DNA of 64,000 bases, taken from contig CAVSTP010000004.1 of the NCBI GenBank assembly GCA_963730935.1, positions 160,001 through 224,000 on the forward strand. Direction: 5' to 3'. Origin of the DNA: an uncultured Nitrospiraceae bacterium (GTDB taxonomy: Bacteria > Nitrospirota > Nitrospiria > Nitrospirales > Nitrospiraceae). Below the pieces are notes generated by a model, which was given only the letters and a program-made list of their open reading frames with translations, made no database searches and had not been told where the DNA came from. The position numbers were made by a program, and so were the translations under genes. Positions within the stretch are counted from its first letter, which is position 1; each line of letters opens with the position of its first letter. Positions 23,682-62,827 of this stretch are shown here, in pieces.

Positions 23682-23715
23682 GGACAGGTTGTTCGCCATC
23701 TGAGACCGCTTGCCC
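23682..23715. promoter_or_regulatory. Tandem enhancer-like palindromes (degenerate)
   Basis: GGACAGGTTGTTC and AGACCGCTTGCCC, centres 21 bp apart. Confidence 0.5.
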
Positions 23716-23768
23716 GCCAGAAGGGTCTGAGACCCCTCAGAGCGTCGGCTCTCAACAGGGAACTGAGA

Positions 23769-23784
23769 TGGTCTTGGAATTGCA
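23769..23784 (+). promoter_or_regulatory. sigma54 -24/-12 promoter (OMP-slp-slp-ligD)
   Basis: TGGTCTTGGAATTGCA (GG-N10-GC with TTGCA). Confidence 0.7.
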
Positions 23785-23795
23785 AAGTTATCACC

Positions 23796-24419
23796 ATGAC
23801 CAAATCAAGGGCTTGGTGTGCGTTGTCGCTCGCCATCGCCTGTCTTTCTCCAACAGCTGCGCAGGCCGAATACTATGTTGCAGGACAAGTCGGCGTGAAC
23901 TTTGCCGACAGACTGACAGGAATCCAAGGGACCGGCAATTTTGTGACACAACGGGGCCCTGATCTCGACCTCAAGAATGCTGTTCTGTATGGAGGAAAAT
24001 TAGGTTTTTTCCCAGGCAATGGAGCGATGGGTCTGGAGTTGGATGTGTTCAACAGTCAACCCAACATCAAGAATCTGGACAACATCCCGGGTATTCATCT
24101 CGGCGTGACCAATGTCGGCATCAACCTCCTGCTGCGGTACCCCGGCCAGACGTTTCAGCCGTACATAGGCTTCGGAGGCGCCGCGCTGATCGCCCGCATT
24201 TCGGAGACGGTAGACGTGCAGAGCGACACCGATGTCGGATTCGGGATCAATCTGCTGGGCGGGCTGCGCACCTTCATTACCCCCTACGTGGCCATTTTTG
24301 CTGAATACAAATATACGCGTGGAACGCTCTCCTTCAACGAAGCCTTTGGATCAGCTGGAGGCTTCTCAGGGGACTATCACGCGCAACAGGTGGTTTTTGG
24401 CGTGTCGTACCATTTCTAA
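23796..24419 (+). CDS. Outer-membrane beta-barrel protein (OmpA-like TM domain)
   Basis: Signal peptide AQA-E, YVAGQVG, PYIGFG, C-terminal GVSYHF. Confidence 0.8.
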   Translation: MTKSRAWCALSLAIACLSPTAAQAEYYVAGQVGVNFADRLTGIQGTGNFVTQRGPDLDLKNAVLYGGKLGFFPGNGAMGLELDVFNSQPNIKNLDNIPGIHLGVTNVGINLLLRYPGQTFQPYIGFGGAALIARISETVDVQSDTDVGFGINLLGGLRTFITPYVAIFAEYKYTRGTLSFNEAFGSAGGFSGDYHAQQVVFGVSYHF

Positions 24420-24430
24420 GGAAACACATC

Positions 24431-25033
24431 ATGAACGCTCCACATTTTGCTCGGCCGATGCATCATTCTAGAGTACTGCTTCCGCTTGTCGCGGTTGCAT
24501 TCGCGCTGCTTGCCTCCGCCTGCTCTGGATCGAAGGTGATTCCGCCTGAGTGGGAAAAACAAATCGACTCGTCGGTATCGTTTCGCGACATACAGGCCTC
24601 TCCCCAGGCGCTACAGGGACGGACGGTACTGCTGGGTGGTGAGGTGCTCGGAGCAAGGCGGGTACAGGACGGAGTGGAATTGGAGGTGTTGCAATTGCCC
24701 GTCAAGGACGATGATCCACCGTCCGAGCGGAGAACGGAATCGGAGGGCCGGTTTTTCGCGATCGACCGCTCAGCCGGAGATCCCGCGTCCTTTCCTCCTG
24801 GGACAAAGGTCACCCTCGTCGGGGTGGTTGCCGGCGAGGAAACACGCCGCCTTGACGAATCCACCTACCGATATCCTATCGTCGAGGTCAAGCACCTGTA
24901 CGTCTGGAGTGAAGACGCCTACCGCGAGCGCTCGGGCAACTCCGTCGGCCTGTTCGGTGGAGTGGGATTTGGATTCGGCAGCGGCGGAAGGGGCGGCAGT
25001 TTTGGTGGTGTCGGTGTCGGCATGGGATACTAG
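24431..25033 (+). CDS. Slp family lipoprotein (Gly-rich tail)
   Basis: Lipobox ASAC; GRTVLLGGEV, EVLQLP, SEGRF, YRYPIV. Confidence 0.85.
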   Translation: MNAPHFARPMHHSRVLLPLVAVAFALLASACSGSKVIPPEWEKQIDSSVSFRDIQASPQALQGRTVLLGGEVLGARRVQDGVELEVLQLPVKDDDPPSERRTESEGRFFAIDRSAGDPASFPPGTKVTLVGVVAGEETRRLDESTYRYPIVEVKHLYVWSEDAYRERSGNSVGLFGGVGFGFGSGGRGGSFGGVGVGMGY

Positions 25034-25111
25034 GCGTTCAGCCGGGGTCTTTGGTAAGTTCAAAAGGCTGTGTTTAAATAGTTGAAATCGCAGAAGCGTG
25101 CGAGGGCGTGC

Positions 25112-25837
25112 ATGACTCTGATCCGGCTATCCCTGCTTATAATGGTGATTGCCTGCGCCGGCTTTTTCGCCACCAGTTGCGCGAAATCGGCTCATCAGAC
25201 TGGGCAAGATCAATTAGAGCGCTTGGTCCCTGCTGACGTCCTCTCTCAGGTGGACGATACCGTGTCCTTCAGCCAACTCCACGCCGATCCTCGCCAATAT
25301 GTGGGCCGGACGGTGATGGTGAGCGGAGTGGCCCTGAAGGCTCGGCGCATCAACGAGGGAACCGAAATTGAAATCCTGCAGGTGCCGACCGAGCGCGGCC
25401 TATCGCCGTCTGATCGGAAGGCAAAGTCCGAGGGACGTTTTCTCGCGGTCCAATCCGCTGGCTTTCTCGACCCTGTCGTGGTCGAGAAGGATTCCCCCTT
25501 GACGGTTGTGGGGGAGGTGAAAGGCGCGACTACCAAACCGCTTGATGAAGGCGAGTATCAATATCCGATCCTCGACGTTAAACATCTGATTGATTGGAAC
25601 GAAGTGAAGGGCAGCGGCCGCGACGGATACGACTCGGCGTACTATGGCCAGTACGGCGGATATTATGGTGGCTGGTCCCACTGGTACTACGGGTTCGGCA
25701 GCCCCTTTGCGGGACCGTACGGCCTCTATCCCTATTCCTATTATGGACCGTATTATTCGTTCCCACGCGGGTATTCCGTGCCGGCACCGTCTCCGCCGCC
25801 TCCCGCATCGATACCCCGCCTCTTCCAAAAAGACTGA
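25112..25837 (+). CDS. Slp family lipoprotein (Tyr/Gly/Pro-rich tail)
   Basis: Lipobox ATSC; GRTVMVSG, EILQVP, SEGRFLA, YQYPIL. Confidence 0.85.
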   Translation: MTLIRLSLLIMVIACAGFFATSCAKSAHQTGQDQLERLVPADVLSQVDDTVSFSQLHADPRQYVGRTVMVSGVALKARRINEGTEIEILQVPTERGLSPSDRKAKSEGRFLAVQSAGFLDPVVVEKDSPLTVVGEVKGATTKPLDEGEYQYPILDVKHLIDWNEVKGSGRDGYDSAYYGQYGGYYGGWSHWYYGFGSPFAGPYGLYPYSYYGPYYSFPRGYSVPAPSPPPPASIPRLFQKD

Positions 25838-25843
25838 CGAACG

Positions 25844-28486
25844 ATGAAACGCGCCACGGTGACCAAGCAGCTGCAACGGTATCGCGGGAAGCGCAACTTT
25901 GTGAAAAGCCCCGAGCCGGCCGGTCATCCGGGACATCATCAGCCGGCCGAAGGACCGATCTATGTCGTTCAGAAACATGCCGCGACGCGCCTCCACTATG
26001 ATTTCCGGCTCGAGCTCGACGGGACATTGAAGAGCTGGGCCGTGCCGAAGGGGCCAAGTCTCGATCCTGGCCAAAAGCGCTTGGCCGTGCATGTCGAAGA
26101 CCATCCGCTGGAATACGCGCAATTCGAAGGCGTCATTCCCCCCAAGCAATACGGCGCGGGGACGGTGTTGATCTGGGACCGCGGCGTCTGGCGGCCGCAG
26201 GGCGATCCGCACGACGGCTATCGTCATGGCGTGCTGAAGTTCCGGCTGGATGGGCAAAAGCTGCAGGGCGCCTGGACCCTCGTTCGTATGCAGTCGCGGC
26301 GCAACGAAGCGCGGGACAACGGCAAGGAAAATTGGCTATTGATCAAGGAAAAAGATGCGGAGGCACGAAGGGGCAAGGCGGGCGAGATCGTGGAGTCCTT
26401 GACGGAGAGCGTGGAGAGCGGTCGCGGTCTCACTGATATTGCGACCGCCGGTGCGCGGGTGTGGCATTCGAACCGGACTTCGTTGAATTCCGAATCACGC
26501 GCCGCGAGCCCTGAGGTCACGACGCCAAAGGGCAAACGTCGGTCTTCGGTGAAACCCTCGGGCCTCACCGACGTGGAAGCCTCGAAATTGCCCGGCGCCG
26601 TCAAAGCGCGTCAGCCGGACTGGATTGCCCCGCAGCTGGCTATGCTGGTCGACCGGATGCCCACGGATGATAACTGGCTGCATGAGATCAAATTCGACGG
26701 GTATCGCCTTTTGTGCCGTGTGAAAAACGGCGATGCCAGGTTCTTCACGCGCAATGGCAACGATTGGACTCCGAAGCTTTCCGCTCAGGCGGAAGCGGTA
26801 GGTCGGCTTGGCCTGAAGGATGCCTGGCTCGACGGGGAGGCGGTCGTGCTGACGGAGCAAGGACGATCGAGCTTTCAGGCCTTGCAGAATGCCTTCGATT
26901 CGCGGTTTACGGGGACGATTGTCTACTGCGTCTTCGATCTGTTGTATCTCAACGGCTATGACCTCCGTGCGACTCCTCTCATCGAGCGGAAGCGTCTGCT
27001 CGCATCTCTCTTGAACCAGTTCAAAGATCCTCAGCTGCGCTATAGCGATCACATCATCGGGGACAATCAAGCCTCCTTCGAGGAAGCCTGCCGGCAGGGA
27101 CTCGAAGGGTTGATCGTCAAACGGATGGACGCCGGCTACCGGTCCGGACGGGGGCGCAGTTGGCTCAAAGTGAAATGCGAGCAACGGCAGGAATTCGTCA
27201 TCGGCGGATTCACGGAGCCGGCCGGCTCAAGGCAAGGGTTCGGGGCTCTGCTGGTGGGTTTGTACGAAGACGGAGCCTTGCGGTATGCGGGAAAAGTCGG
27301 CACAGGATTCTCCGACAGCCTGTTGAAGAAACTCCATCGGACGCTGCGCTCCCTCGAGCAGGCGAAATCGCCGTTCGTGAATCCGCCCTCAGGATACGAC
27401 GCGAAGGGCGCGCATTGGGTGAAGCCGAAACTCGTGGCGGAAATACGGTTTGCCGAATGGACGCAGGAGGGCATCCTGCGGCAACCGAGCTTCCAAGGCC
27501 TCCGGACCGATAAGCCGGCCACGGCGATCGGTCGGGAGCGTGCACAGCATCTCAGCGAAGATCGCAAGGATGAACGTTCTCCCAAGTCCCGGCGGAAGCC
27601 CGTGATGGATGCGGGACGGCTCACCAATCCGGACCGGGTCTTGTATCCGGACATTGGGCTGACCAAGGCCGCGCTTGCTGACTACTATGAACAAGTCGCT
27701 GAGTGGATGTTGCCGCATCTGCGGGGGCGCCCCCTGACGCTTCTCCGATGTCCGGAAGGGTACCAAAAATGTTTCTACCAGAAGCACGTCAACGAAAAGG
27801 TGCCTCCGGCCATCGGCCGGATTGAGATCGAGGAAGCAGATAAAAGGGATACGTATATGTTGGCCGAATCGCCCGAGGCATTGCGAGGTTTGGTCCAGAT
27901 GGGAGTGTTGGAAGTGCACACCTGGGGAGCGACGAAAGACCGCCTGGAGCGCCCTGACCGTTTGACCTTCGATCTCGACCCCGATCCGTCGGTTCCCTGG
28001 GAGCAGGTGATCGAAGCGGCTCAACTGACCAAGACGTTGCTCGATGAACTCGGCCTCGTGTGCTTTCTCAAGACCACCGGTGGCAAAGGGCTGCACGTCG
28101 TCACGCCGATTCAGCGCACGCTAGGCTGGGAGGAGGCCAAGCTCTTCGCAAAAATGGTCGCCGATCATCTCGTGACGGCAATCCCTCAGCGCTTCACCTC
28201 GAATATGGCCAAGCGCGCTCGGAAAGGAAAAATTTTCATCGATTATCTTCGGAACGCGCGCGGCGCGACGGCCATTGCCGCCTACTCGACAAGGGCCAAG
28301 CCCGGCGCTCCGGTCTCGGTGCCGATCGCGTGGGACGAGTTGTCGAAAGAGCTGCATTCGGACCACTTCACGGTCATGAACGTGCCGGCACGGCTCAAGC
28401 GTTTCCGGCACGATCCCTGGGAAGCCTACCGCCGGTCCGCCCGTCGAGTGACTGCGGAGATGGGACAGCGGCTAAAGTCCCGCTAA
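25844..28486 (+). CDS. ligD: DNA ligase D (phosphoesterase-ligase-polymerase)
   Basis: QKHAATRLHYDFRLE, EIKFDGYR, EGLIVKR, WLKVK, FDLDPD, KTTGGKGLH, DYLRN. Confidence 0.95.
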   Translation: MKRATVTKQLQRYRGKRNFVKSPEPAGHPGHHQPAEGPIYVVQKHAATRLHYDFRLELDGTLKSWAVPKGPSLDPGQKRLAVHVEDHPLEYAQFEGVIPPKQYGAGTVLIWDRGVWRPQGDPHDGYRHGVLKFRLDGQKLQGAWTLVRMQSRRNEARDNGKENWLLIKEKDAEARRGKAGEIVESLTESVESGRGLTDIATAGARVWHSNRTSLNSESRAASPEVTTPKGKRRSSVKPSGLTDVEASKLPGAVKARQPDWIAPQLAMLVDRMPTDDNWLHEIKFDGYRLLCRVKNGDARFFTRNGNDWTPKLSAQAEAVGRLGLKDAWLDGEAVVLTEQGRSSFQALQNAFDSRFTGTIVYCVFDLLYLNGYDLRATPLIERKRLLASLLNQFKDPQLRYSDHIIGDNQASFEEACRQGLEGLIVKRMDAGYRSGRGRSWLKVKCEQRQEFVIGGFTEPAGSRQGFGALLVGLYEDGALRYAGKVGTGFSDSLLKKLHRTLRSLEQAKSPFVNPPSGYDAKGAHWVKPKLVAEIRFAEWTQEGILRQPSFQGLRTDKPATAIGRERAQHLSEDRKDERSPKSRRKPVMDAGRLTNPDRVLYPDIGLTKAALADYYEQVAEWMLPHLRGRPLTLLRCPEGYQKCFYQKHVNEKVPPAIGRIEIEEADKRDTYMLAESPEALRGLVQMGVLEVHTWGATKDRLERPDRLTFDLDPDPSVPWEQVIEAAQLTKTLLDELGLVCFLKTTGGKGLHVVTPIQRTLGWEEAKLFAKMVADHLVTAIPQRFTSNMAKRARKGKIFIDYLRNARGATAIAAYSTRAKPGAPVSVPIAWDELSKELHSDHFTVMNVPARLKRFRHDPWEAYRRSARRVTAEMGQRLKSR

Positions 28487-47275: not shown

Positions 47276-47298
47276 TCGGAGTGCGCAGCGACAATACA

Positions 47299-47643: not shown

Positions 47644-47651
47644 GCCAACTC

Positions 47652-47720
47652 AGATTTGAAATTGAAGGCGAGAGCTTGAGATCTGAAGTTTAAAACTTGA
47701 GATTTGAAAGCCGAGATCTG
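47652..47720 (+). repeat. Degenerate tandem heptamer array (consensus RRATYTG)
   Basis: GAGCTTG AGATCTG AAGTTTA AAACTTG AGATTTG AAAGCCG AGATCTG at 47672-47720 plus AGATTTG at 47652. Confidence 0.7.
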
Positions 47721-47765
47721 CGCGCACACGCGGGAATCTGCGGCGCGCGGAAAAGGGAGGAGATC

Positions 47766-50445: not shown

Positions 50446-50575
50446 GGCCGTCTTTCTCGGCGGTCCGACGGCTGACTGCATTGCTGCCGAAGGCGCCTGC
50501 CCGGTCGCGCCAGCCTTGCGGGTCGAGTCCAAGGAAGGAACTCAAGGCGCCCGCAGGCGGCGACCGGGTTTCGCT

Positions 50576-51118: not shown

Positions 51119-51127
51119 GATTCCTCC

Positions 51128-51582: not shown

Positions 51583-51598
51583 TGCAAAAGAAGGGCCA
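51583..51598 (-). promoter_or_regulatory. sigma54 promoter (dksA-like/hemerythrin)
   Basis: TGGCCCTTCTTTTGCA on the minus strand. Confidence 0.75.
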
Positions 51599-51673: not shown

Positions 51674-51706
51674 GCGCGAGTTGTCTTTCCCGGGGACAAG
51701 CTGTCG
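51674..51706. promoter_or_regulatory. Tandem enhancer-like palindromes
   Basis: GCGCGAGTTGTCT (half site) and GGACAAGCTGTCG, centres 20 bp apart. Confidence 0.6.
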
Positions 51707-51953: not shown

Positions 51954-52550
51954 TTATGCGGCGAGCGATGATTGCGACGTCAGATCGTCCTTACGCCGCT
52001 GCATCGTCATCCCGAGCGTCTGCACGTCGAGCTGGGCCGCCGCGAGCGGAAGAATCGCATCTTCTTCCTCCGTGACATGCTCGATGACGGCATCCTCAAA
52101 CTCCGTAAACAGGTCCCGATAATCACTGCTTTTCGGGTCCAGGGTCCGAAGCTGTTGAATCAAGTCCTTGACCATACTGTGACTGTCGTAGGCGGCCGTG
52201 ATGATTTCCGACTCCGCTTCCTCCTCTTCCTCGTCATCGAGTTCCTCGAGGGCGCTTTCGCTTTCCGGGTCGATCTCGCCGTCGTCCGTGACATCGAGCC
52301 CGTTGCCCTCCGTTTCATATCCCAGCGATTCGAGCTTGGACTGCACGGCCGGGTAGAACAGTTCCTCTTCCACTTTCGAATGAATATCCAACTCGGTGAA
52401 CAGCCGCGACGCGATGGATCCCTTCTCGTCATCCGACGCGCCATGGAATTGTTCGAACAGCTTGCGCACCTCTTTGTGATCGGCTTTCAACAACTGGACT
52501 GCATCTTGGGGTTGTGAGCTTTTAGGCTTCTTCGGCGTCCGCTTGGCCAT
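51954..52550 (-). CDS. Hemerythrin-like domain protein with acidic insertion
   Basis: DHKEV, HSKVEEELFYP, HVTEEE; GGAGG RBS. Confidence 0.85.
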   Translation of the reverse strand: MAKRTPKKPKSSQPQDAVQLLKADHKEVRKLFEQFHGASDDEKGSIASRLFTELDIHSKVEEELFYPAVQSKLESLGYETEGNGLDVTDDGEIDPESESALEELDDEEEEEAESEIITAAYDSHSMVKDLIQQLRTLDPKSSDYRDLFTEFEDAVIEHVTEEEDAILPLAAAQLDVQTLGMTMQRRKDDLTSQSSLAA

Positions 52551-52594
52551 GGTGTCCTCCTTGCCATTCATGAAAAACGCCCTGCGCCTCTGGC

Positions 52595-53455
52595 TCATCC
52601 ATTGACGATCGTGCCTCCGTTGGGATGCAGCACTTGGCCGGTCGTATAGGATGAGTCCTGCGACGCAAGGAAGACATAACTCGGGGCGACTTCCTCGGGC
52701 TGCCCAGCGCGTTTGAGCGGGACGTCGAAACCGAACGTGGCGACTTTATCCGCGGGAAAGGTGGAGGGGATCAGGGGCGTCCAGATGGGACCTGGCGCCA
52801 CGGCATTGACTCGGATCTGCTTGTCGGCGAGCGCCTGAGACAGAGACCGCGTGAAGGCGACGATTGCGCCCTTGGTCGACGAATAATCGATCAACTGGGC
52901 GCTGCCTTTATAGGCCGTCACCGAAGTCGTGTTGATAATGGTGCTTCCCTCCTTCAAGTGGGGCAATGCGGCTTTCCCCATAAAAAAATACGAAAAAATG
53001 TTCGTCCGGAACGTGCGCTCGAGTTGGTCCTCTGTAATCTCTTCCAGGCTCTCCTGCGGATGCTGCTCGGCGGCATTGTTCACGAGAATATCCAGCCCGC
53101 CCAATTCGCGGACGGTGCGCTCCACCGCCTCGTGGCAGAACTGTTCCTTCCCTACGTCGCCTGCGATGAGGATGCACCTACGACCCTGCTGTTCGACCAG
53201 GCGCTGGGTTTCTTTCGCATCTTCATGCTCGTTGTAATAGACGATGGCCGTATCAGCCCCTTCTTTGGCGTACGCGATGGCGACGGCTCGACCAATGCCA
53301 CTATCTCCGCCCGTGATCAACGCCACCTTGTTCAGGAGTTTGCCGCATCCACCTTGCGCAGGGCCTTCGCTTTTCGGACGAGGCGTCATGTCCTTTTCCA
53401 GTCCTGGCTGTCGTGACTGTTGCTGAGGCGGACGCTGCTGTTTCGATGGGGACAT
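52595..53455 (-). CDS. SDR oxidoreductase (YdaD/YghA-like general stress protein)
   Basis: TGGDSGIG, NNAAEQ, YSSTK, PGPIWTPL, AGQPEE. Confidence 0.9.
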   Translation of the reverse strand: MSPSKQQRPPQQQSRQPGLEKDMTPRPKSEGPAQGGCGKLLNKVALITGGDSGIGRAVAIAYAKEGADTAIVYYNEHEDAKETQRLVEQQGRRCILIAGDVGKEQFCHEAVERTVRELGGLDILVNNAAEQHPQESLEEITEDQLERTFRTNIFSYFFMGKAALPHLKEGSTIINTTSVTAYKGSAQLIDYSSTKGAIVAFTRSLSQALADKQIRVNAVAPGPIWTPLIPSTFPADKVATFGFDVPLKRAGQPEEVAPSYVFLASQDSSYTTGQVLHPNGGTIVNG

Positions 53456-53598: not shown

Positions 53599-53614
53599 TG
53601 CAAGAGACAGACCC
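53599..53614 (-). promoter_or_regulatory. sigma54 promoter (SDR-hemerythrin)
   Basis: GGGTCTGTCTCTTGCA on the minus strand. Confidence 0.65.
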
Positions 53615-53689: not shown

Positions 53690-53721
53690 GGACAAAATGT
53701 CTGACACAGGACACCTGGTCC
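53690..53721. promoter_or_regulatory. Tandem enhancer-like palindromes
   Basis: GGACAAAATGTCT and GGACACCTGGTCC, centres 19 bp apart. Confidence 0.65.
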
Positions 53722-53789: not shown

Positions 53790-53805
53790 GGGCACTCGAT
53801 TTGCA
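53790..53805 (+). promoter_or_regulatory. sigma54 promoter (PLD-VTT/EEP)
   Basis: GGGCACTCGATTTGCA. Confidence 0.75.
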
Positions 53806-53824: not shown

Positions 53825-56026
53825 ATGAACGCCGCGAGAAAATTACAAAAGCAGTCGGAATTGCAGCAGCAATCGCCCGGTGCGGCCTCCCGGTCCTCCG
53901 CTGCACGGTCGTCGTTACTCGTGCCCGGCCGCAATTGTTGGCGGGTGGAGCGCGCCGAGCACGCGTCGTTCCTGATCGACGGAGATTCCTACTTCCGGGC
54001 GTTTCGTGCCGCGGCCATCAATGCCCGCCACAGCATTATTATCCTCGGCTGGGATTTCGACAGCCGGATCCGAATGCTGATCGACCGGGAACCCGACGGG
54101 TTTCCCGACCGGTTAGGCGAATTCCTCCATGCGCTGCTGATCCGGAGACGACAGCTCCATATCTACGTCCTCACGTGGGACTTCCACATGATCTACTGGA
54201 AGGAGCGGGAATGGTGGCTCCCGTCGAAGCTCGCCGCGCATCGACGGCTGCATTTCCACAAGGACGGCGCGCATCCGGTCGGGGCCTCCCATCATCAGAA
54301 AGTGGTCATCGTCGACGATGTCGTGGCCTTTGTCGGGGGGTTGGATTTTGCCCAATGCCGCTGGGATACGAGCCAGCATCGTGACAGCCACCCGGACCGT
54401 GTGCTGCTCACAGATGAGACCCCGTGCCGGCCGTTTCATGACGTGCAGCTGATGGTGAGCGGTCCGGTGGCTGAAGCGCTGGGGGAGTTGGCCCGCAACC
54501 GCTGGCGTGCCGCGACTGGGCGGGCCATGCGTCCCGTCGTGCAGGGCCGTCCGGAAGAACTGTGGCCCGAGGCTGTGAAGCCGGAGATGTCGGATGTCCC
54601 GGTCGCCATTGCCAGAACAGCGCCCGCCTTCGGGGAGCGTGCGTCCGTCAACGAAGTGGAGGCCTTATTTCTGGACAGTCTGAACAACGCGCGCCGTCAC
54701 ATTTACATTGAGACGCAGTACCTGACCTCCCGAACGATCGCAGACTGCCTTGCCGCACGGCTGCAGGATCCAAAAGGACCAGAAATCGTCATGGTGCTGC
54801 ATCCCAACAGCGACGGTTGGCTCGAGCAGCATACGATGGACGTGCTGAGAGGACGCGTGCTCGAGCAGCTCCGTGCCGCGGACCGGTTCCACCGCTTGAG
54901 TCTCAATTATCCCAAGGTGCCAGACCTTCGCGGGCAATGCATCAGCATGCACAGCAAAGTCTGCGTCGTAGACGATGACTTCGTGCGGATAGGATCGGCC
55001 AACCTGAGCAATCGGTCGATGGGGTTCGATACGGAGTGCGACTTGGCGATCGAAGCGTCAGGGAACCCGGCCATACGTGGATCGATCGGCGCATTCCGCC
55101 ATTCATTGCTCGCAGAACATCTTGGAGTCAGTCCGGATGCGGTCGCACGTGAGCTCGAAAAGGATGGGTCGCTGATCGGCACGGTGGAGCGGTTGCGCGG
55201 GGGAGCCCGGACGCTGGGGTATTTCGACGGCACCGTTTCGGCTGATGTGAACGAGGTCGTGCCCGATGAAGCCTTTATCGACCCGAGCGGACCGTATGAC
55301 ATGCAATTCATTCCGGCTGAACGTCGGAAGCCCGCACTTCGGCTAATCATTACCGGTTCTGTCGGTCTGCTGGCGTTGATCCTGCTTGCCGGCCTCTGGC
55401 AGTGGTCGCCGTTACGCGAACTGATGGATGTGACCTCACTGGTGGCTTCGTTGGAGGAAGTGGCCAATGGGCCTATGGCCTTGCTCATGACTGTCGCCGG
55501 GTTCTTGATCGGAGGTGTGCTGGTCATGCCGGTGATGATATTGATCGCGGTGACCATTCTCGCCTTCGGGCCGTGGTGGGGATTCTGGTATGCCCTGATC
55601 GGCATGACGGCGAGTGCGTTGCTCACCTTCGGCGTCGGCCGTCTGTTGGGCCGTCGGTTGATGGACCATCTCTCGGGCTCATGGGTGCATCGGATCAGTC
55701 GCACCCTGGCCAAAAAAGGCCTGCTGACCGTCGTGACGCTCCGAATCCTTCCCGTTGCGCCGTTTTCCATCCTCAATGCCGTCGCTGGGGCTTCGCACAT
55801 CCGGGCGAGGGACTTTTTCCTCGGTACGGTGTTGGGGGAGCTTCCGGGACTTGTGGGTCTCGCGTTGTTTCTGGACCAGGTGACCGAAACCATCCGGCAT
55901 CCCGAACTCGGCAGTATTCTGCTCCTCGTCGTGATTGCTGCCGGAATCGTGCTGATCGCCTGGGCGTTGGGACGGTGGCTGTCCAACAAACCAGATGATA
56001 TGTCGAGCACAGAGCGGACGGACTGA
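53825..56026 (+). CDS. Phospholipase D family protein fused to a VTT/DedA domain
   Basis: HQKVVIVD and HSKVCVVD HKD motifs; C-terminal TM region with LRILPVAPF. Confidence 0.88.
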   Translation: MNAARKLQKQSELQQQSPGAASRSSAARSSLLVPGRNCWRVERAEHASFLIDGDSYFRAFRAAAINARHSIIILGWDFDSRIRMLIDREPDGFPDRLGEFLHALLIRRRQLHIYVLTWDFHMIYWKEREWWLPSKLAAHRRLHFHKDGAHPVGASHHQKVVIVDDVVAFVGGLDFAQCRWDTSQHRDSHPDRVLLTDETPCRPFHDVQLMVSGPVAEALGELARNRWRAATGRAMRPVVQGRPEELWPEAVKPEMSDVPVAIARTAPAFGERASVNEVEALFLDSLNNARRHIYIETQYLTSRTIADCLAARLQDPKGPEIVMVLHPNSDGWLEQHTMDVLRGRVLEQLRAADRFHRLSLNYPKVPDLRGQCISMHSKVCVVDDDFVRIGSANLSNRSMGFDTECDLAIEASGNPAIRGSIGAFRHSLLAEHLGVSPDAVARELEKDGSLIGTVERLRGGARTLGYFDGTVSADVNEVVPDEAFIDPSGPYDMQFIPAERRKPALRLIITGSVGLLALILLAGLWQWSPLRELMDVTSLVASLEEVANGPMALLMTVAGFLIGGVLVMPVMILIAVTILAFGPWWGFWYALIGMTASALLTFGVGRLLGRRLMDHLSGSWVHRISRTLAKKGLLTVVTLRILPVAPFSILNAVAGASHIRARDFFLGTVLGELPGLVGLALFLDQVTETIRHPELGSILLLVVIAAGIVLIAWALGRWLSNKPDDMSSTERTD

Positions 56027-56027
56027 C

Positions 56028-56726
56028 ATGCAGCTGACGTTCGCCACCTACAATATCCATCGATGTGTCGGGCGCGACGGTCGGTACGATCCTTCCCGCA
56101 TCCGCGATGTCATTCGTGAATTGGACGCGGACGTGATCGCGGTGCAGGAAATCGACACTCCGGATCGGCACGGTTTGGAACTCGCGCATTGGCTGGGAGA
56201 GGAATCCAAGTATCAGGTCATCGCCGGGCCCACCTTGTTGGAGCGCAAGGGCCATCACGGCAACGCGGTCTTCACCCGCTGCCAGCGAGGAGAGATTCGG
56301 TTGGTGGATTTCAGTCTACCTGCGTATGAGCCCCGCGGGGCGATCGACCTGGATGTGACCTGTGGCGGGGTGACCGTGCAAGTCATCGCCACGCATTTGG
56401 GGCTACGTCCATGGGAGCGACGCTTCCAAGTCGAGCGGCTTCTCAAATGCGTCAGACCGAATTGCGTCCTCATGGGCGACTTCAACGAATGGTGGCTTTG
56501 GGGCCATCCGCTGCGGGCGATCAAAGCTATTTTCGGTCACACTCCCGCGTTGCCCACCTTTCCCTCCTTCCGACCGGCCCTGGCACTGGATCGTATCTGG
56601 ATCCGACCCACCGGTCGTCTCAAGTCCATCGCGGTGCACCGAACGCGCCTCTCGGCACGAGCATCGGATCACCTGCCGCTCAAGGCGGTTGTCGAATGGG
56701 ATTCGGAGGAAAACACGGACGGGTAA
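56028..56726 (+). CDS. Endonuclease/exonuclease/phosphatase family protein (YbhP-like)
   Basis: TYNIH, QE, GDFNEW, LDRI, SDHLPL. Confidence 0.9.
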   Translation: MQLTFATYNIHRCVGRDGRYDPSRIRDVIRELDADVIAVQEIDTPDRHGLELAHWLGEESKYQVIAGPTLLERKGHHGNAVFTRCQRGEIRLVDFSLPAYEPRGAIDLDVTCGGVTVQVIATHLGLRPWERRFQVERLLKCVRPNCVLMGDFNEWWLWGHPLRAIKAIFGHTPALPTFPSFRPALALDRIWIRPTGRLKSIAVHRTRLSARASDHLPLKAVVEWDSEENTDG

Positions 56727-56770: not shown

Positions 56771-57142
56771 TCACTGCTCCGCAGAGTCCGGCGCGCTTGC
56801 CGCAACCGACTGGTCCGGCTCGGCCACCAGATCGGGGACAGAGGTGTCCATCACTCTTAGCGCGCGTCCCTGGTCGTCCAGCCGGAGCGCGATGCGCGCG
56901 CCGACGATCACGTTCTCAAACAGATAGGCCTTGGGTACGTCGAAATAGATGGGGCGTCCCAAATCCGTTCTTAAGAGGCCCCGCCCGGTGGCCAAATCCA
57001 GCTTGAGCAAGGTGCCGGACACCAGGTGCAGCGGCCCGTCCGTGCCCTCGGCCGCAACGGGAGTGGGCTGGCTCAGGAACGCCGCGAGCACAACGCCCAG
57101 GAGAGTGATCGTGAACGTTGAGGGTGTGGTGCGATTAATCAT
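56771..57142 (-). CDS. Hypothetical exported small beta-barrel protein
   Basis: Signal peptide VAA-E; AGGAG RBS. Confidence 0.6.
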   Translation of the reverse strand: MINRTTPSTFTITLLGVVLAAFLSQPTPVAAEGTDGPLHLVSGTLLKLDLATGRGLLRTDLGRPIYFDVPKAYLFENVIVGARIALRLDDQGRALRVMDTSVPDLVAEPDQSVAASAPDSAEQ

Positions 57143-57309
57143 AGCGTCTCCTTCCATTGCCTTGCCTACAGGGTGAAACGGCAAGGCTCATCGCGCTTGA
57201 CGAGCAGCCGGAAGGTCCCAAAGAATTTTCCAGCCCACAGCAACCATTGCCTAGTGGCTCAGCCTCCTACTCGACTTCACGTATCGCTTTAACTTGACTG
57301 TCCCTTCAC

Positions 57310-57555
57310 TCACGGCGGAGGTGGCGGTGATGGGGAAGGAGGCTGCGTCGGACCCGGACCAGGGAATGGCGTTGTCGGAGGAATCGGCGCCGGGGGCGGC
57401 GGACCCGGCTGCGGATTCGGAAACGTCGGGCCGGGGCTCGGGTTCGGCGGATCGTTAGCAACAACCGGTACCACCCAGGCCACTGCCAGGCTTCCCCCCA
57501 AAATGCCTGCGATCAACAGCACCGAAGCGCGCACCATAAGGGTCTTCTCGTTCAC
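57310..57555 (-). CDS. Small exported proline-rich peptide
   Basis: Signal-like N-terminus, 26 Pro in the last 47 residues; GTGA overlap with the CBS gene stop. Confidence 0.55.
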   Translation of the reverse strand: MNEKTLMVRASVLLIAGILGGSLAVAWVVPVVANDPPNPSPGPTFPNPQPGPPPPAPIPPTTPFPGPGPTQPPSPSPPPPP

Positions 57556-58028
57556 GCCGCCCGACCGAACCCGTCTCCGTGATCCGTTGTGTCTCCTCGC
57601 CTCGGGCGCGAGGGCTGCGAGACGTTCTCGAGCACCTTTCCGGTCATTTGGTGGTCCTGGGTGTTGACCGCAATGTCTCCCACGGACACGATACCGACCA
57701 ATTTGCGGTTCTTGTCCAAGACCGGCAACCGTCGGATCTGCTGGCCTGCCATCACGGCAGCCGCATGCTCCACGTCGTCATCGTCGAAGCAGTAGACGAC
57801 CGACGGCGTCATGGCCTCTCCGACGAGCATCGCCTTCGGGTCGCGCGTGACAGCCAAAACCCGCACGACCAAGTCCCTATCAGTCAATACTCCCACCAGG
57901 CCCTCTTCATCGCACACTGGGAGGACCCCTATGTCGAGCGTTTTCATGAGTGCGGCGGCATCTTCGGTCGTTGCATCCGGTGAGATGACTTCAGCCTGCG
58001 GGGTCATCACGTCCTTGATTCGAAGCAT
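57552..58028 (-). CDS. CBS domain pair protein
   Basis: KDVMT, GVLTDRDLVVR, QIRRLPV, GIVSVGDIA; AAGGAGG RBS. Confidence 0.9.
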   Translation of the reverse strand: MLRIKDVMTPQAEVISPDATTEDAAALMKTLDIGVLPVCDEEGLVGVLTDRDLVVRVLAVTRDPKAMLVGEAMTPSVVYCFDDDDVEHAAAVMAGQQIRRLPVLDKNRKLVGIVSVGDIAVNTQDHQMTGKVLENVSQPSRPRRGDTTDHGDGFGRAA

Positions 58029-58050
58029 TGTAGCTCCCTCCTTGTTCAGG

Positions 58051-58389
58051 TCAGGCCATCGCTGCCGCCATGTCCCGGCAGGCAGCGGCACAACGCCGGC
58101 ATTCGACGGCACAGTCGCCGCAAAGCGGGTGGTGCGGCGAGTGCTGCTCGCAGACGCTGGCGCACCGGTCGCAGATCTCTGCACAGGTGCGGCAGAGCAG
58201 CTCCGTGGAAGGAGACAGCCGGTTCATCCAGCGGGTCGAGAGCGCGCAGAGATCGGCGCAATCAACACAGAGTCTGATACAGAGGTCTTGAAGCCCCTTA
58301 TGGCTGCCCCCTTCCATGCCGATCATGTCGTCGGCGCAGCGGTCGCAAATTTGCGCGCATGCAGCACAAGCCTCAAGACAATGCTGCAT
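58051..58389 (-). CDS. Cys-rich four-helix-bundle Cu-binding protein (DUF326/Csp3-like)
   Basis: Repeated CxxxCxxC motifs; start ambiguous (see findings). Confidence 0.82.
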   Translation of the reverse strand: MQHCLEACAACAQICDRCADDMIGMEGGSHKGLQDLCIRLCVDCADLCALSTRWMNRLSPSTELLCRTCAEICDRCASVCEQHSPHHPLCGDCAVECRRCAAACRDMAAAMA

Positions 58390-58473: not shown

Positions 58474-58489
58474 CGCAAAAGGTAGACCA
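58474..58489 (-). promoter_or_regulatory. sigma54 promoter (Cu-binding/CBS)
   Basis: TGGTCTACCTTTTGCG on the minus strand. Confidence 0.7.
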
Positions 58490-58571: not shown

Positions 58572-58603
58572 CCGCAAGTTGTCTTGGGAAAGACAAGCTG
58601 TCC
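58572..58603. promoter_or_regulatory. Tandem enhancer-like palindromes
   Basis: CCGCAAGTTGTCT (half site) and AGACAAGCTGTCC, centres 19 bp apart. Confidence 0.6.
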
Positions 58604-58630
58604 CGTACAGACACTCTGTGTGTTCGAAAG

Positions 58631-58885
58631 CTATTTCTTGAACACCATTCGCGGCGCCGTTAGATCGCCCATGCTGAACACGATGAGTTCCCACCCTGCG
58701 GCGCCGTATTCATTGAGCGTCGTCTGCATCGCGGTGTTGTCGGTCGGCACGTCGACAACCTTATAGACGTATCTCTTCGCCTCTTGGCCCTCTGCGACGG
58801 GCTGGCGCCAGACGGATATGGATGACAGCACAAGCGCCAAGACGAAGATGGCACCACTCAAGAAGCGGATTGCCATCGCATCCAT
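58631..58885 (-). CDS. Small DUF4177-like protein
   Basis: N-terminal TM, YVYKVV...LNEYGAAGWELI...FKK; AAGGAGG RBS. Confidence 0.7.
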   Translation of the reverse strand: MDAMAIRFLSGAIFVLALVLSSISVWRQPVAEGQEAKRYVYKVVDVPTDNTAMQTTLNEYGAAGWELIVFSMGDLTAPRMVFKK

Positions 58886-58929
58886 AGGACACCTCCTTAA
58901 TTTGATGGACTGTCAGCAGACCAGCGGAA

Positions 58930-59958
58930 TCATCCGCCGGGAAGGACCCGGCCTTTGAAGATCCGATAGAGATAGTAGAGCAGCGGGAACAACACGAGGG
59001 ATCCGATTACGAGGCTGACGAGCAATAGGCGCAATGTCGGCGGGGGGGCTGCATGGGCAATGGTCAGATGAGGTTCCACGAGAAACGGATACTGGGACAA
59101 CGCCCAGCCCCAGAACATGACCACCGCACCTCCGATCGCGCATCCTCTGGCCGCCCGGCCACGCAAGTGCCACAGGGCGGGCAGCGCGGCGAGATGAAAG
59201 GCGATGGCGAGTAAGATCGCCATGAGACCGGGGGTTGTGTGACGAAGTCCCGCGTAAATTTCCGGTGCTCCGTCTCGGGCTTGCCACAGGACCACGCCTC
59301 CGGCCAACAGGACCGCCACGCATGACGCGACGGCCCGGCGTGCAAACCGCTTGCGGAGGTCGAGTTCCCGCGCTTCGACGAGTAGGTAGGTGGCGGCCAA
59401 GTATGCGACCAGCACGACGGTCAGGAATCCCACGCTCAACGGAAAGGGCGCCAGCCAGGGAGCAACGAACCGTTGCATGAAGGAGCCCGGCGAGGAGACC
59501 GCCGTCAGTCGGCCGGACGCCACCGCGCCCAAGCTTATGCCCAACAATGCCGGGGTGATCATGCTGGACCCCGCAAACAGATAGCGCCATATGTCGAGAG
59601 TTCCACTGCTTCCATCGGCCTGAGACGTAATGTCATGGGTCCGCACGGCGAAGGCGGTGCCGCGAAGCACGATACCGAGGAGCATGAGCGTGAGCGGAAT
59701 GTGCAGGGCGGTTGTGATCAAGGCGAATGCGGTAGGGAATGCAGTAAACAGGATAGTGACCGCGATGATCAGCCACACATGATTGGCTTCCCAGATCGGA
59801 CCGATCGCTTGATCGATCAATGCCCTTTGCTTCTGGCCGCTCTTGCCGAGCGCGAAGAGACTCCAGATCCCGGCACCGAAATCAGCTCCGCCGGTCAACA
59901 GGTAACAGGTCAGCGCCCCGACCAGCGAGGCGCCCAGCACTAACTCGAGTGCGCCCAT
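58930..59958 (-). CDS. cydB: Cytochrome bd oxidase subunit II
   Basis: GGADFGAG, GPIWEANHVWL, multiple TM segments. Confidence 0.9.
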   Translation of the reverse strand: MGALELVLGASLVGALTCYLLTGGADFGAGIWSLFALGKSGQKQRALIDQAIGPIWEANHVWLIIAVTILFTAFPTAFALITTALHIPLTLMLLGIVLRGTAFAVRTHDITSQADGSSGTLDIWRYLFAGSSMITPALLGISLGAVASGRLTAVSSPGSFMQRFVAPWLAPFPLSVGFLTVVLVAYLAATYLLVEARELDLRKRFARRAVASCVAVLLAGGVVLWQARDGAPEIYAGLRHTTPGLMAILLAIAFHLAALPALWHLRGRAARGCAIGGAVVMFWGWALSQYPFLVEPHLTIAHAAPPPTLRLLLVSLVIGSLVLFPLLYYLYRIFKGRVLPGG

Positions 59959-60022
59959 GAGGACTCGATTCTACCGGCTTGGATTGCCCCTCCGGAGTCT
60001 GGCAAGCTGGCCGGCCCGATCG

Positions 60023-61351
60023 TCATGCTTCCGTGAGCACGGTCCGCACGACCGTGTTCGATGAGACCGCGGCAATGTGCCGCCACATGGCCCAGCACAC
60101 CACACCGGCAAGCACGAGATACAGAAACGTGAACGTTGCCATCGGAATCCACAAGCCGGGCATCGGAGTGACGGCTTCCGATGTGCGCATGAGGTGGTCA
60201 ATGATCCATGGTTGCCGGCCGACTTCCGTGACGACCCAGCCAGCTTCGATCGCAATGAAGCCCAAGGGCGCCGTCGCGATCAAGGCATAAAGGAGCTTCC
60301 GGTCCTGTTCGATCTGTCCGGTCCAAAACGCTCGCCATCCGCTCCACAGCGCCATCGCCGCCATCAGCATTCCGCAGGCTACCATCAACTGAAACGCGAT
60401 ATGCACCACAGCCACCGGCGGCCAGTCTTCGGGCGGATAGCGGTCCAAACCGGTGACTGCTGCGTGTGTGTTCCCATGCAACAGTAGGCCGAGGCCGTAA
60501 GGGATCCGTATCGCATAGGAGACTCTGCCGGTCGCGACGTCCGCAAGGCCACCGAGGACAAAATCGGGTCCTGCCTCCGTGGTAAACAGCGCTTCCATGG
60601 CAGCGAGCTTGGCCGGCTGGTGGACGGCCACCGCCCGGGCGATCAGGTCCCCGCTCAACGGCTGCAAGAGCGCCGCAATTCCGCCGACTGTTAACGCGAT
60701 AGTCAAGGCGAGCCGATGAAATCGGCTGTGCGGATCTTGCAGGAGCAGCCAGGCATGAATTCCTGCGACAAGAAACCCGGTGGCGGCGAAGGCGGCCAAT
60801 AGCATATGGACGGTTTCGTGCCAAGCTGGCGGATGCCACATCGGTGCCAAAATATCGATCTGAGAGGATGGTGCCCCTTCAGGTGCCAAGCCGGTCGGTC
60901 CGTTCATCCAAGCATTGACGGTGATCACGAAGAACGCCGACGCCACGCCGCTCGCCGCGACGACCAGTCCCGATACGAAATGCGCCCGAGCGGAAATCCG
61001 CGACCAGCCATACAGATAGATGCCCAGGAAAATGGCTTCCGTAAAAAATGCAAAACCTTCGAGCGCAAACAGCGGGCCGATGTGGGGACCGGCCCGTTCC
61101 ATGAACTTGGGCCAGAGGAGGCCCAATTCGAACGACAGCACCGTGCCCGAGACGGCGCCTACCGCAAACAGGATGGCCGTTCCCTTAGACCAACGTTGAG
61201 CCAAATTGAGGGCTTCACGGTCTCCCTTCGTCAGCCAGCGCCATTCTGCGGCGGCCATGAGTAACGGCATCGCGATACCGATGGCCGCGAAGACAATGTG
61301 AAAGCCCAGGGACATCGCCATCTGGGTTCGCGCCGCGAGCAGATCGGTCAT
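60023..61351 (-). CDS. cydA: Cytochrome bd oxidase subunit I (short Q-loop)
   Basis: GFHIVF, EGFAFFTE, HMLLA, QPAKLAAME, FQLMV, TEVGRQPW. Confidence 0.92.
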   Translation of the reverse strand: MTDLLAARTQMAMSLGFHIVFAAIGIAMPLLMAAAEWRWLTKGDREALNLAQRWSKGTAILFAVGAVSGTVLSFELGLLWPKFMERAGPHIGPLFALEGFAFFTEAIFLGIYLYGWSRISARAHFVSGLVVAASGVASAFFVITVNAWMNGPTGLAPEGAPSSQIDILAPMWHPPAWHETVHMLLAAFAATGFLVAGIHAWLLLQDPHSRFHRLALTIALTVGGIAALLQPLSGDLIARAVAVHQPAKLAAMEALFTTEAGPDFVLGGLADVATGRVSYAIRIPYGLGLLLHGNTHAAVTGLDRYPPEDWPPVAVVHIAFQLMVACGMLMAAMALWSGWRAFWTGQIEQDRKLLYALIATAPLGFIAIEAGWVVTEVGRQPWIIDHLMRTSEAVTPMPGLWIPMATFTFLYLVLAGVVCWAMWRHIAAVSSNTVVRTVLTEA

Positions 61352-62430
61352 CGGGTCACAGGCACGTCAAATGATCCCGCCGACAGGGCGGAAGCGGATC
61401 GGGGCCTGAACCGTGGAGCGCCATTGGACCTCGAACGAGCCTGCCACCACCAGGCCGCCAGTCCCATCCCGGCCAACGCCAGCCACCCGCGATGCTGATT
61501 CATCCAGGCTTGCACGCTGTGGTCGAGCGCTCCATTGCTGAATTCGCCGCGGGCGCCGTAATCACCGGGCAAGGGGGAATAGAGATTGTCCGGGCGCCCC
61601 GGTTGCACCGGTTCCTGTGTTTGTTGCGATTCGTACCCGATATAGGCGAGGTAATAGTCGAGCCAACCGGGGATGAATTTGTCTCCGATGATGGCCTGGA
61701 CGGTCGGGTAGCCGACAGCCAAATCCCGGCGACGGTGATGTGCCGCCCAATAGACGGCCCGCGCAATAACCTCAGGCTGGTAAATGGGAGGAACCGGCTG
61801 CGGGTGTCGCGGCATACGCGTCCTGATCCAGGAGAACTGCGGGGTGTTCACCGCCGGCAACTGCACGCTCGTGAGGTGAACGCGGCTGCCGTCGTGGATG
61901 AGTTCGGACCGAAGCGATTCCGTAAAGCCTTGCACCGCGTGCTTGGCGGCGCAGTAGGCCGACTGCAACGGAATCGAGCGGTAGGAAAGTGCCGAGCCGA
62001 TCTGGACCACGACACCACGATCACGCGGGACCATGCGCCGAAGCGCTGCCAGCGTGCCATATACATAGCCGAGATAGGTGACGTCTGTCACGCGGCGATA
62101 TTCGTCGGCGGTCATGTGAAGGGCAGGCGAGAGGACCGAGACCATCGCATTGTTGATCCAGATATCGATGGGCCCCAATTCCTGTTCAATGCGTTCTGCC
62201 GCTTGTTCCATTTCCCGGTCATTGGAAACGTCCATTTGGATGGCAAGTGCGCGGCCGCCCAGGCGTTCCGAATCGTGCCGGGCGCCTGCCAATCCGTCAC
62301 GACTCCTCGCGAGCAGACCCAAGGAGGCTCCGTGTCTGGCGAACTCGCGCACGATAGCCCGTCCGACGCCGGCGGACGCGCCGGTTACGACGACGACTTC
62401 CGAATGTCTTGCTCGTGATCCTCTCATCAT
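61348..62430 (-). CDS. SDR oxidoreductase with C-terminal TM
   Basis: TGASAGVG, WINNAM, YCAAKH, PAVNTPQF; ATGA overlap with cydA. Confidence 0.88.
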   Translation of the reverse strand: MMRGSRARHSEVVVVTGASAGVGRAIVREFARHGASLGLLARSRDGLAGARHDSERLGGRALAIQMDVSNDREMEQAAERIEQELGPIDIWINNAMVSVLSPALHMTADEYRRVTDVTYLGYVYGTLAALRRMVPRDRGVVVQIGSALSYRSIPLQSAYCAAKHAVQGFTESLRSELIHDGSRVHLTSVQLPAVNTPQFSWIRTRMPRHPQPVPPIYQPEVIARAVYWAAHHRRRDLAVGYPTVQAIIGDKFIPGWLDYYLAYIGYESQQTQEPVQPGRPDNLYSPLPGDYGARGEFSNGALDHSVQAWMNQHRGWLALAGMGLAAWWWQARSRSNGAPRFRPRSASALSAGSFDVPVTR

Positions 62431-62648
62431 TTTGCCGCTCCCAAGCTGGTGTATGGCTGGTGACTGACGCTGACCCATTTGGAAAGAGTCAGCAGGCAGG
62501 CAAAAAGCCACCCGCAAGGCATGTAGTTACGGCGGGTTGAAAGACGCCAAACGCCTCGAAGGAGGAATGGTGGCCCAGCGTTTTCTTCCAATGGCTTCCA
62601 GGCACCCTTCCGCGTGTTACACGTCAGCCTGTCAGCCATAAAGGAGGG

Positions 62649-62664
62649 TGCAAGCAGGGTGCCG
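62649..62664 (-). promoter_or_regulatory. sigma54 promoter (SDR-cydAB)
   Basis: CGGCACCCTGCTTGCA on the minus strand. Confidence 0.75.
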
Positions 62665-62724
62665 ACAGGATGCGACCCGCGCCATCTCTCCTCATCATTC
62701 GTCAGATGAGCTCACTCATGGGTT

Positions 62725-62757
62725 GGACCTTCTGTCCACCGCCCAGACAAATTGTCT
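62725..62757. promoter_or_regulatory. Tandem enhancer-like palindromes
   Basis: GGACCTTCTGTCC and AGACAAATTGTCT, centres 20 bp apart. Confidence 0.7.
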
Positions 62758-62811
62758 GGCCATTGTGTAATCGAATCGCCCAAAGGCTGGGGAAACCCCG
62801 CATCTTCGAAA

Positions 62812-62827
62812 CGGCCCACGATTTGCA
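62812..62827 (+). promoter_or_regulatory. sigma54 promoter (divergent from the cyd operon)
   Basis: CGGCCCACGATTTGCA. Confidence 0.7.

Follow-up and report, generated by a model that had tools for sequence, protein, structure and literature searches.

Transcription from sigma54 promoters needs an AAA+ activator, which acts by looping. LigD/Ku, YtxH, CsbD and similar families belong to the SigB, RpoS and EcfG regulons, one EcfG study reportedly linking EcfG with ligD, and besides these families the gene set described here shares with those regulons the BON, Slp, catalase and ferritin-like families and the glycogen and trehalose enzymes. Model bacteria assign such stress genes to a dedicated stress sigma factor; many Nitrospira appear, by genome prediction, to use sigma54 for part of them. 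The case analysed here is a window, meaning the whole stretch of 64,000 nucleotides under study (C4:160001-224000 of the source genome, G000), in which stress-type operons lie behind sigma54 (-24/-12) boxes and a shared tandem enhancer motif.

Among described systems the closest in architecture are NtrC, ZraR, AtoC, GlrR and NorR, REC-AAA+-HTH proteins encoded beside a histidine kinase, with two to three dyad sites before a -24/-12 promoter, as found here. ZraR likewise has divergent sigma54 promoters under one activator (PMC4987338, in part). The NmpRSTU system of Myxococcus xanthus shares an NtrC-like regulator, paired dyads, sigma54, targeting of its own operon and a hemerythrin target (PMC11841059, in part), and in the Rrp2-RpoN-RpoS cascade of Borrelia adaptation is also controlled by sigma54 and a response-regulator activator (PMC4014564, in part). 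Gram-negative stressosomes without SigB resemble the locus in having rsbRST(X) among hybrid kinases.

The comparisons below indicate that a conserved sigma54 regulon is real and that its candidate activator is well supported. We consider it probable that the tandem enhancer of this regulon is read by the activator encoded at C4:229315-230670 and that the regulon serves stress-type genes.

Tandem sites and sigma54 boxes

Judged from its proteins, which are 91-97% identical to those of a Nitrospira sp. record (L047), the source genome is a Nitrospira, and by gene content the window falls inside a stress-gene island roughly 180 kb long (C4:108-290 kb). This island holds LigD, Ku, glycogen and trehalose enzymes, YtxH, CsbD, BON, PRC-barrel and hemerythrin genes, as well as CBS, ferritin-like and Slp genes, cytochrome bd, many kinases and a stressosome. 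Genes were called with a custom hexamer script, so that gene starts are approximate, and target units were assigned with Pfam. The promoter elements and predicted target units of the window are listed below (ORF, open reading frame; aa, amino acids; enhancers carry no strand; identities are given for boxes against outside).

23682..23715, tandem enhancer pair, 12.6 + 7.8 bits, spacing 21; recognisable in 3/5 relatives
23770..23783, plus strand, sigma54 -24/-12 box, kept in 5/5 relatives; predicted start ~23795
23796..28486, plus strand, target unit: outer-membrane beta-barrel, two Slp lipoproteins, LigD; presumably a single transcript
43149..43182, tandem enhancer pair, 16.9 + 14.3 bits, spacing 21; identity 0.98 against 0.45, 3 relatives
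43267..43280, plus strand, sigma54 box, by sequence and conservation
43376..49950, plus strand, target unit: YtxH, small ORF, metallophosphoesterase, nucleotidyltransferase, DoxX, M50-CBS protease, small ORF, rhodanese, GH15 hydrolase; presumably a single transcript
49972..51535, minus strand, target unit: DksA/TraR-type zinc finger, hemerythrin (HHE), unassigned protein
51584..51597, minus strand, sigma54 box, by sequence and conservation
51674..51706, half-site and full site, 1.9 + 15.9 bits, spacing 20; identity 0.92 against 0.47, 4 relatives
51954..53455, minus strand, target unit: short-chain dehydrogenase, hemerythrin (HHE)
53600..53613, minus strand, weakest sigma54 box (score 7.7), sharing the 53690 pair
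53690..53721, tandem enhancer pair for two divergent boxes, 17.3 + 10.2 bits, spacing 19; identity 0.88 against 0.49, 8 relatives
53791..53804, plus strand, sigma54 box, by sequence and conservation
53825..56726, plus strand, target unit: phospholipase D-VTT protein, EEP phosphoesterase
56771..58389, minus strand, target unit: DUF326 (Csp-like) protein, CBS protein, unassigned 123-aa protein
58475..58488, minus strand, sigma54 box, by sequence and conservation
58572..58621, array of three sites, 6.6, 17.4 and 9.7 bits, spacing 19 and 18
58631..62517, minus strand, target unit: short-chain dehydrogenase, cytochrome bd subunits I and II, 84-aa protein
62650..62663, minus strand, sigma54 box, by sequence and conservation
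62725..62757, tandem enhancer pair for two divergent boxes, 11.5 + 18.6 bits, spacing 20; identity 1.00 against 0.57, 3 relatives
62813..62826, plus strand, sigma54 box, by sequence and conservation
62899..64000, plus strand, target unit: 64-aa ORF, PRC-barrel protein (ends 9 bases beyond the window)

The original prediction named 13 palindromic sites, six pairs and a single one at 63116, and all of them lie where it had placed them. Its consensus, RGAC-N5-GTCY, is strictly matched by 7/13 and missed by the other six; RGACA-N3-TGTCY describes the site better and is also what a matrix yields that was built from 57 distinct sites, taken from relatives only and picked with a strict tandem pattern (TGTCY-N5-9-RGACANNNTGTC). 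This matrix recovers 5/6 window pairs. The element at 51674 is a half-site only, yet conserved, and a third site, at 58609, stands beside the 58572/58591 pair. The predicted spacing of 19-21 bp widens to 17-22 bp with a mode of 19, not about 21: across 106 pair calls it is 19 in 50, 18 in 25 and 21 in 14. Enhancers are centred about 40-155 bp from the GG of the box. The lone site at 63116, proposed to act upstream of the PRC-barrel gene, was rejected, as it scores 5.3 bits with identity of 0.58 in the site against 0.51 around it in 3 relatives; in relatives the equivalents of the 62725 pair and 62813 box point at the PRC gene, which more likely belongs to the 62813 plus-strand unit.

Pairs are far commoner than chance, with 7 window matches of the strict tandem pattern against 0.01 expected and none of 100 shuffles reaching 7. 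Since this pattern was designed from the window sites, it is the tests in other genomes that carry weight. Single sites with at most one mismatch number 14 in the window (6.0 +/- 2.3 expected). A LexA box was considered as the identity of the palindrome and rejected: no LexA match was found in the whole source genome, and recA has no strong site. Outside the island, pairs at C2:307657, 410983, 630181 and 792019 show a spacing of 22 bp, all four with a box, against 18-21 in island pairs. Two pairs of strong sites 30 bp apart, C4:252615/252645 (L027:8615-8657) and C6:19867/19897 (L386), have no good sigma54 box near; one precedes a NarL-type regulator gene and the other an AhpC/TSA gene.

All eight predicted GG-N10-GC promoters ending in TTGC were found as GG-N8-TTGC boxes, with GG at 23770, 43267, 53791 and 62813 on the plus strand (where the earlier coordinates were 1 base early) and at 51597, 53613, 58488 and 62663 on the minus strand. 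The transcription starts predicted from them lie at about 23795, 43292, 53816 and 62838 on the plus strand and at about 51572, 53588, 58463 and 62638 on the minus strand. The genome carries one intact rpoN, including the RpoN box. The 103 boxes near pairs read GG-Y-N-Y-N4-Y-TTGC-W, a consensus partly forced by the scoring matrix, and often begin with GGTC or GGCC, not TGGCAC.

The association of site and box extends beyond the window. In the rest of G000 a box lies 25-165 bp from 15/26 intergenic sites of at least 13 bits, compared with 1/44 sites in coding sequence and 7.5% of intergenic positions drawn at random, and boxes stand beside 22/26 pair calls in G009 and 8/8 in G001. Held-out DNA (516 kb of 10 genomes, chosen around activator or pattern matches) gave 38/41 pair calls with a box at 20-140 bp, three of the 41 repeating a promoter, over a background of about 6%. 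Lone perfect palindromes with a box also occur (C4:153623, 640102, 940240). The 103 site-to-box distances favour an 11-bp period (Rayleigh p 0.0013), a phasing that is suggestive only, as six periods were tried and kin are not independent. Duplicated promoter modules were seen at G009:C1:3251554/3273056 and 3254578/3270495, and also in L186, with one copy lacking GG.

Orthologous promoters conserve the elements: for five window promoters identity is 0.70-1.00 in boxes and 0.39-0.57 outside (1.00/0.57, 0.88/0.49, 0.92/0.47, 0.98/0.45 and 0.70/0.39). Identities for 58465-58625 are lowered by three of its seven aligned stretches being non-orthologous. For 23675-23795 the sole aligned stretch of the first comparison was non-orthologous, and the region, redone with 5 relatives, gave a sixth footprint in which the box is kept in all five and the pair in three. 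The start predicted from this 23770 box abuts the ATG at 23796 of the beta-barrel gene, and an ATG follows the box similarly closely in 5 relatives; the unit is probably transcribed as a leaderless sigma54 transcript. In 13 RNA runs, 5-16% of words matched; contigs from four of them, of relatives, cover most bins and show neither start nor strand.

The candidate activator

The original prediction held that one activator, encoded outside the window, serves all these promoters. G000 has 19 full sigma54 activators, among which the gene at C4:229315-230670 (minus strand, 5.3 kb beyond the window) fits best by its distribution and by its flanking sites. It encodes a REC-AAA+-HTH protein (PF00072, PF00158, PF02954) and adjoins a PAS histidine kinase gene on the same strand (C4:230670-232241), and sites flank the kinase-activator locus at C4:229279/229299 and 232301.

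Distribution was followed in a family panel of 161 genomes, each at least 90% complete, where orthologs counted at 61% identity or more are present in 67 genomes and absent from 94. The strict pattern has 509 matches in this panel, against 74 for a reversed control, and at least four of them occur in 45/67 ortholog-positive and 2/94 ortholog-negative genomes. Within genera g14, g21 and g30 the difference gives p<0.0002, and in g1 p 0.05, values that are overstated because kin are not independent. Ku, tallied by hand as was RsbR, is found in 48/67 ortholog-positive against 6/94 ortholog-negative genomes, which fits a stress role. These counts include two unpublished genomes, G046 and G084, on neither of which the conclusions rest; leaving both out gives 44/65 for the motif, 47/65 for Ku and 34/38 for the site after the activator gene. 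This last feature, a site of at least 12 bits within 250 bp after the stop codon, is found in 35/39 orthologs, and strong sites occur at 34/40 ortholog loci against 4/74 other activator loci. A close ortholog in motif-rich G009, combined with the lack of one in motif-free G002 and G024, is seen for only three of the 19 activators. Of these three, the two besides the candidate are present in 12 and 2 of the 161 genomes; none of the remaining 18 activators fits.

In 18/18 aligned orthologs, of 69-89% overall identity, the recognition helix ILGIHRKTL is identical, and it differs in the nearest paralog; D55 and Walker A and B (GESGTGKE, DE) are invariant among aligned orthologs. None of the NCBIfam equivalog cut-offs is reached (score/cut-off: AtoC 502/714, NtrC 431/559, ZraR 429/760, GlrR 368/763), so the database label 'AtoC' is a nearest-neighbour name. 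Named homologs belong to Nitrospira and Nitrospiraceae, N. japonica protein P0003 being 89% identical. In G009 there is a second activator paralog (66%) without flanking sites.

Behind the site that follows the activator gene, many genomes carry a single-domain receiver gene, which is likely to provide feedback or a phosphate sink; in G000 the receiver protein is C4:228710. On the other side of the locus, at C4:232502 (L026:8502-8735), a 77-aa Cys-rich ORF divergent from the kinase lies behind a site and box, with a receiver-like ORF there in several relatives; a small RNA divergent from the kinase was considered and rejected, as the box points to these ORFs. Rfam gave no match within the window, outside which this spot lies.

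Counter-evidence, rival explanations and signal input

Several observations weigh against the reading that this activator runs a sigma54 stress regulon. The matrix that scores the boxes follows a general consensus for -24/-12 promoters, and loop 1 of the activator reads GSFTGA in G000, not GAFTGA, both forms occurring among orthologs. Seven of the 67 ortholog-positive genomes have 0-1 strict matches, and two motif-rich genomes lack the ortholog, namely G013, where a contig ends just before the locus, and G043, which is in 460 contigs. The activator, the motif and the stress genes travel together, so that co-occurrence is partly island inheritance, and kin are not independent in the panel counts. 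Only 13/88 island operon leaders carry a site and box within 450 bp (elsewhere 13/2020), a limit that missed at least two promoters and let in one match without GG. Finally, G000 possesses an RpoS-like sigma70 factor (C4:1613322), whose best NCBIfam match is RpoS, at 333 bits against a curated cut-off of 394. As to the exceptions in the panel, G005 has few strict matches and the matrix shows sites at its activator locus, and G020, counted as ortholog-negative, has its activator gene cut by a contig edge.

Who reads the site bears most directly on the assignment. The palindrome might be read by another protein, be it a different activator, a NarL/LuxR-type regulator or a repressor, with the neighbouring activator merely co-inherited. 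The strong co-occurrence of activator and island genes, the several NarL-type regulators in the island and the recurrence of the same tandem geometry with a strong box in contigs unlike Nitrospira, one upstream of a FliA gene, would all suit such a reader. Yet the sites are as far from sigma54 boxes as enhancers would be, such boxes depend on an AAA+ activator, the remaining 18 activators do not fit, sites flank the activator gene in most orthologs, and neither LexA nor a strong site at recA was found in G000; we hold another reader to be very improbable. It is barely credible that the bound unit is the junction TGTC-N10-GACA between palindromes, as for GlrR/QseF. At spacing 21 the junction reads exactly as the GlrR site does (PMC3045617, in part), but the inner spacer of the palindrome is fixed at 3 while the junction varies over 6-11 bases, spacing 21 accounts for just 14/106 pairs, lone perfect palindromes occur with a box, and the activator stays far below the GlrR cut-off.

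The range of the site outside Nitrospira was followed in two samples. In the out-group (50 of at least 80 genomes holding NtrC-family loci 40-55% identical to the activator, among the matches listed) there are 13 strict matches in a Nitrospira sp. and 0-2 in each of the other 49. A metagenome scan for the tandem site gave at least 80 loci, of which 59 were analysed; 14 have a box, five being clearly Nitrospira-like, two unclear and seven not, the latter including a CBS/Usp pair, bestrophin and FliA (named homologs Bryobacteraceae). Atlas searches with two of the metagenome proteins yielded no usable taxon. Such contigs (L523, L533, L538, L539, L548, L554) carry the tandem site and a strong box before CBS/Usp, subtilase, MFS, bestrophin and FliA genes, and two of these modules directly follow a histidine kinase gene. 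A similar site is thus probably recognised by different activators in other phyla.

How much of the stress gene set is covered is a separate question. That sigma54 runs this set, as originally proposed, is an overstatement and would hold for the subset with the module; in G000 the leaders of the stressosome, glgC-treY, glgB, ferritin-like and CsbD genes have none, nor, outside the island, do a large catalase and a Ku unit. The sigma54 arm could therefore be real and still a sub-branch, with a sigma70 factor, either the RpoS-like one or a group-2 factor (C2:359149), as the master stress regulator in charge of most genes on the island and perhaps of the kinase-activator operon as well. The RpoS match, the 75/88 island leaders without the module, and the kinase-activator operon of G000, which has a site and no box pointing into it, speak for this arrangement. 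We nevertheless consider it unlikely: the RpoS-like factor stays under its curated cut-off and is present in 5/5 genomes tested, two of them motif-free, and the group-2 factor in 158/161, so that neither tracks the island as the activator does, and the module stands directly before catalase in G009 and before Ku in G001 and G016. A cascade through a sigma70 factor was not supported: the RpoS-like gene has no upstream site or box in 6/6 genomes, the element before the group-2 gene has AG for GG, and the group-2 gene is core. This conserved element, CCAGCA-N6-TTGCT (AG where the box has GG), occurs upstream of the group-2 gene at 28/30 loci, about 135 bp before C2:359149 (L452-L481), and close relatives of G000 have a site-like 13-mer 147 bp farther upstream. 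As for other sigma factors of G000, none of 12 sigma70-region-2 matches, one of them scanned as an 80-aa piece, reaches the TIGR02980 cut-off for a SigB type. ECF factors are present, and no FliA-type sigma is among the 12 matches of the whole genome.

What the system senses can be approached through the kinase. That of G000 has a membrane segment and a PAS domain, which has no match among solved structures; that of G005 has another sensor region on the same kinase core, and no adjacent kinase was seen at the activator loci of G164, G176, G160 and G130. A sensor that varies by lineage, and four loci without one, argue against one fixed signal. The same wiring might still serve a specific low-oxygen or dormancy regulon like that of Myxococcus NmpR, which drives an oxygen-utilisation regulon including a hemerythrin (PMC11841059, in part); cytochrome bd, two hemerythrin-domain proteins and CBS proteins are among the targets, and the G000 kinase has its PAS domain. 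This is quite unlikely, as most targets are not respiratory (LigD, YtxH, Slp, PRC-barrel, DUF4142, phospholipase D, GH15, SDRs), the NmpR site differs from the one here, the PAS domain is without a structural match, and kinase sensors are as varied as just described.

A different input may come from the stressosome, whose genes lie in the window as a possible input and not as a direct target:

3422..6117, plus strand, stressosome genes rsbR, rsbS and rsbT with an RsbX-like phosphatase, among hybrid kinases
38-3316 and 6126-10828, hybrid kinases around the stressosome

Tentatively, the stressosome and several hybrid kinases could feed phosphate to the activator, with sigma54 in the place of SigB, a scheme that we think possible with the balance against it; that the stressosome connects to the activator is a conjecture drawn from the nested distribution only. 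An RsbR ortholog is found in 19/161 genomes, 18/67 activator-positive and 1/94 negative ones, the latter being G013 with its contig break at the locus. This nesting, the lack of SigB and the four activator loci without an adjacent kinase favour the scheme. Against it, 49/67 activator-positive genomes are without such an RsbR, and co-inheritance of the island explains the nesting equally well. A stressosome has been noted in N. moscoviensis with its output left open and a CheY-like protein or a diguanylate cyclase suggested (10.1101/138586, in part).

The rest of the window shows no such modules in two blocks. Stress-type genes without a site-plus-box module occupy 11602-23677 (glycogen and trehalose-type hydrolases, DUF72, DUF2231, TPP enzyme, cyclopropane fatty-acid synthase, MFS), and an RND heavy-metal-type efflux set (AcrB/CusA, CusB, outer-membrane factor), also without a module, lies at 35659-41376. 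A NusG-family paralog is followed by a heparinase II/III-like gene at 30422-33344, a combination that we take to be typical of polysaccharide loci. Apparent gene remnants stand at 28627-28845 (a C-terminal GAPDH fragment) and at 42349-43107 (ABC transporter-like by eye, with no Pfam match).

Proposed mechanism and comparison with known systems

In the mechanism that we propose, a subset of the island operons and about a dozen elsewhere would be transcribed from sigma54 promoters, each with a tandem enhancer in which RGACA-N3-TGTCY occurs twice at 17-22 bp spacing and which a single NtrC-type activator is predicted to bind. Upon phosphorylation of Asp55, dimers on neighbouring sites would oligomerise and loop to the sigma54 holoenzyme, opening the promoter, in line with the description of phosphorylated activators oligomerising on neighbouring sites in PMC4987338 (in part). 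One pair may serve two divergent promoters, as two window pairs are so placed. The system would also be wired to itself, through the sites that precede the kinase gene and those that immediately follow the activator gene, the latter driving the single-domain receiver. Its targets appear to be genes of the general-stress, starvation and desiccation type, the kind of stress, and with it the label 'general stress', being read from gene names.

The mechanism is of the textbook kind. None of the papers searched, few of them from subscription journals, describes this site or regulator, or stress genes of Nitrospira wired in this way, and none reports sigma54 promoters or a stress regulon for that group. 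Nitrospira is absent from the main text of a cross-phylum sigma54 survey (PMC12316311, in part) and in the text portion of PMC3162934 is mentioned for tree order only. Neither GACA nor TGTC occurs in the running text of the Desulfovibrio regulome, seen in excerpt, where one activator is placed under 'general stress response' (PMC4641369).

Nitrospira is a major nitrifier group, for which these results name a candidate regulator, a predicted DNA site and about 25 target promoters. With the candidate activator in 67/161 sampled family genomes, the motif may be used as a marker of lineages that carry the programme. If the activator turns out to be the principal switch for stress, sigma54 can take charge of general stress genes in place of a dedicated stress sigma factor, and it becomes testable what a stressosome without SigB controls. 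Should the stressosome link be true, it would add a further general stress architecture beside SigB, RpoS and EcfG and name the missing output of the SigB-less Gram-negative stressosome.

Compared with NtrC-type activators, the system differs in having about 25 promoters, not a few, and in reaching no equivalog cut-off; the NtrC, PrpR, FhlA and GlrR sites in the table of PMC4987338 (in part) differ from the site found here. NmpRSTU has another site, GCGCA-N5-TGCGC, gaps of 14-15 bp and oxygen-utilisation targets (PMC11841059, in part). In Borrelia sigma54 acts via rpoS (PMC4014564, in part), whereas here the effectors themselves carry the module and the RpoS-like gene, in all six genomes, does not. 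The stressosome here differs from other Gram-negative ones without SigB in its suggested output, a sigma54 activator, proposed from nested distribution only. In contrast to the SigB, RpoS and EcfG regulons, finally, a subset of the stress genes appears to be wired to sigma54 and an ATP-dependent activator, with no sigma factor of the SigB/F/G level.

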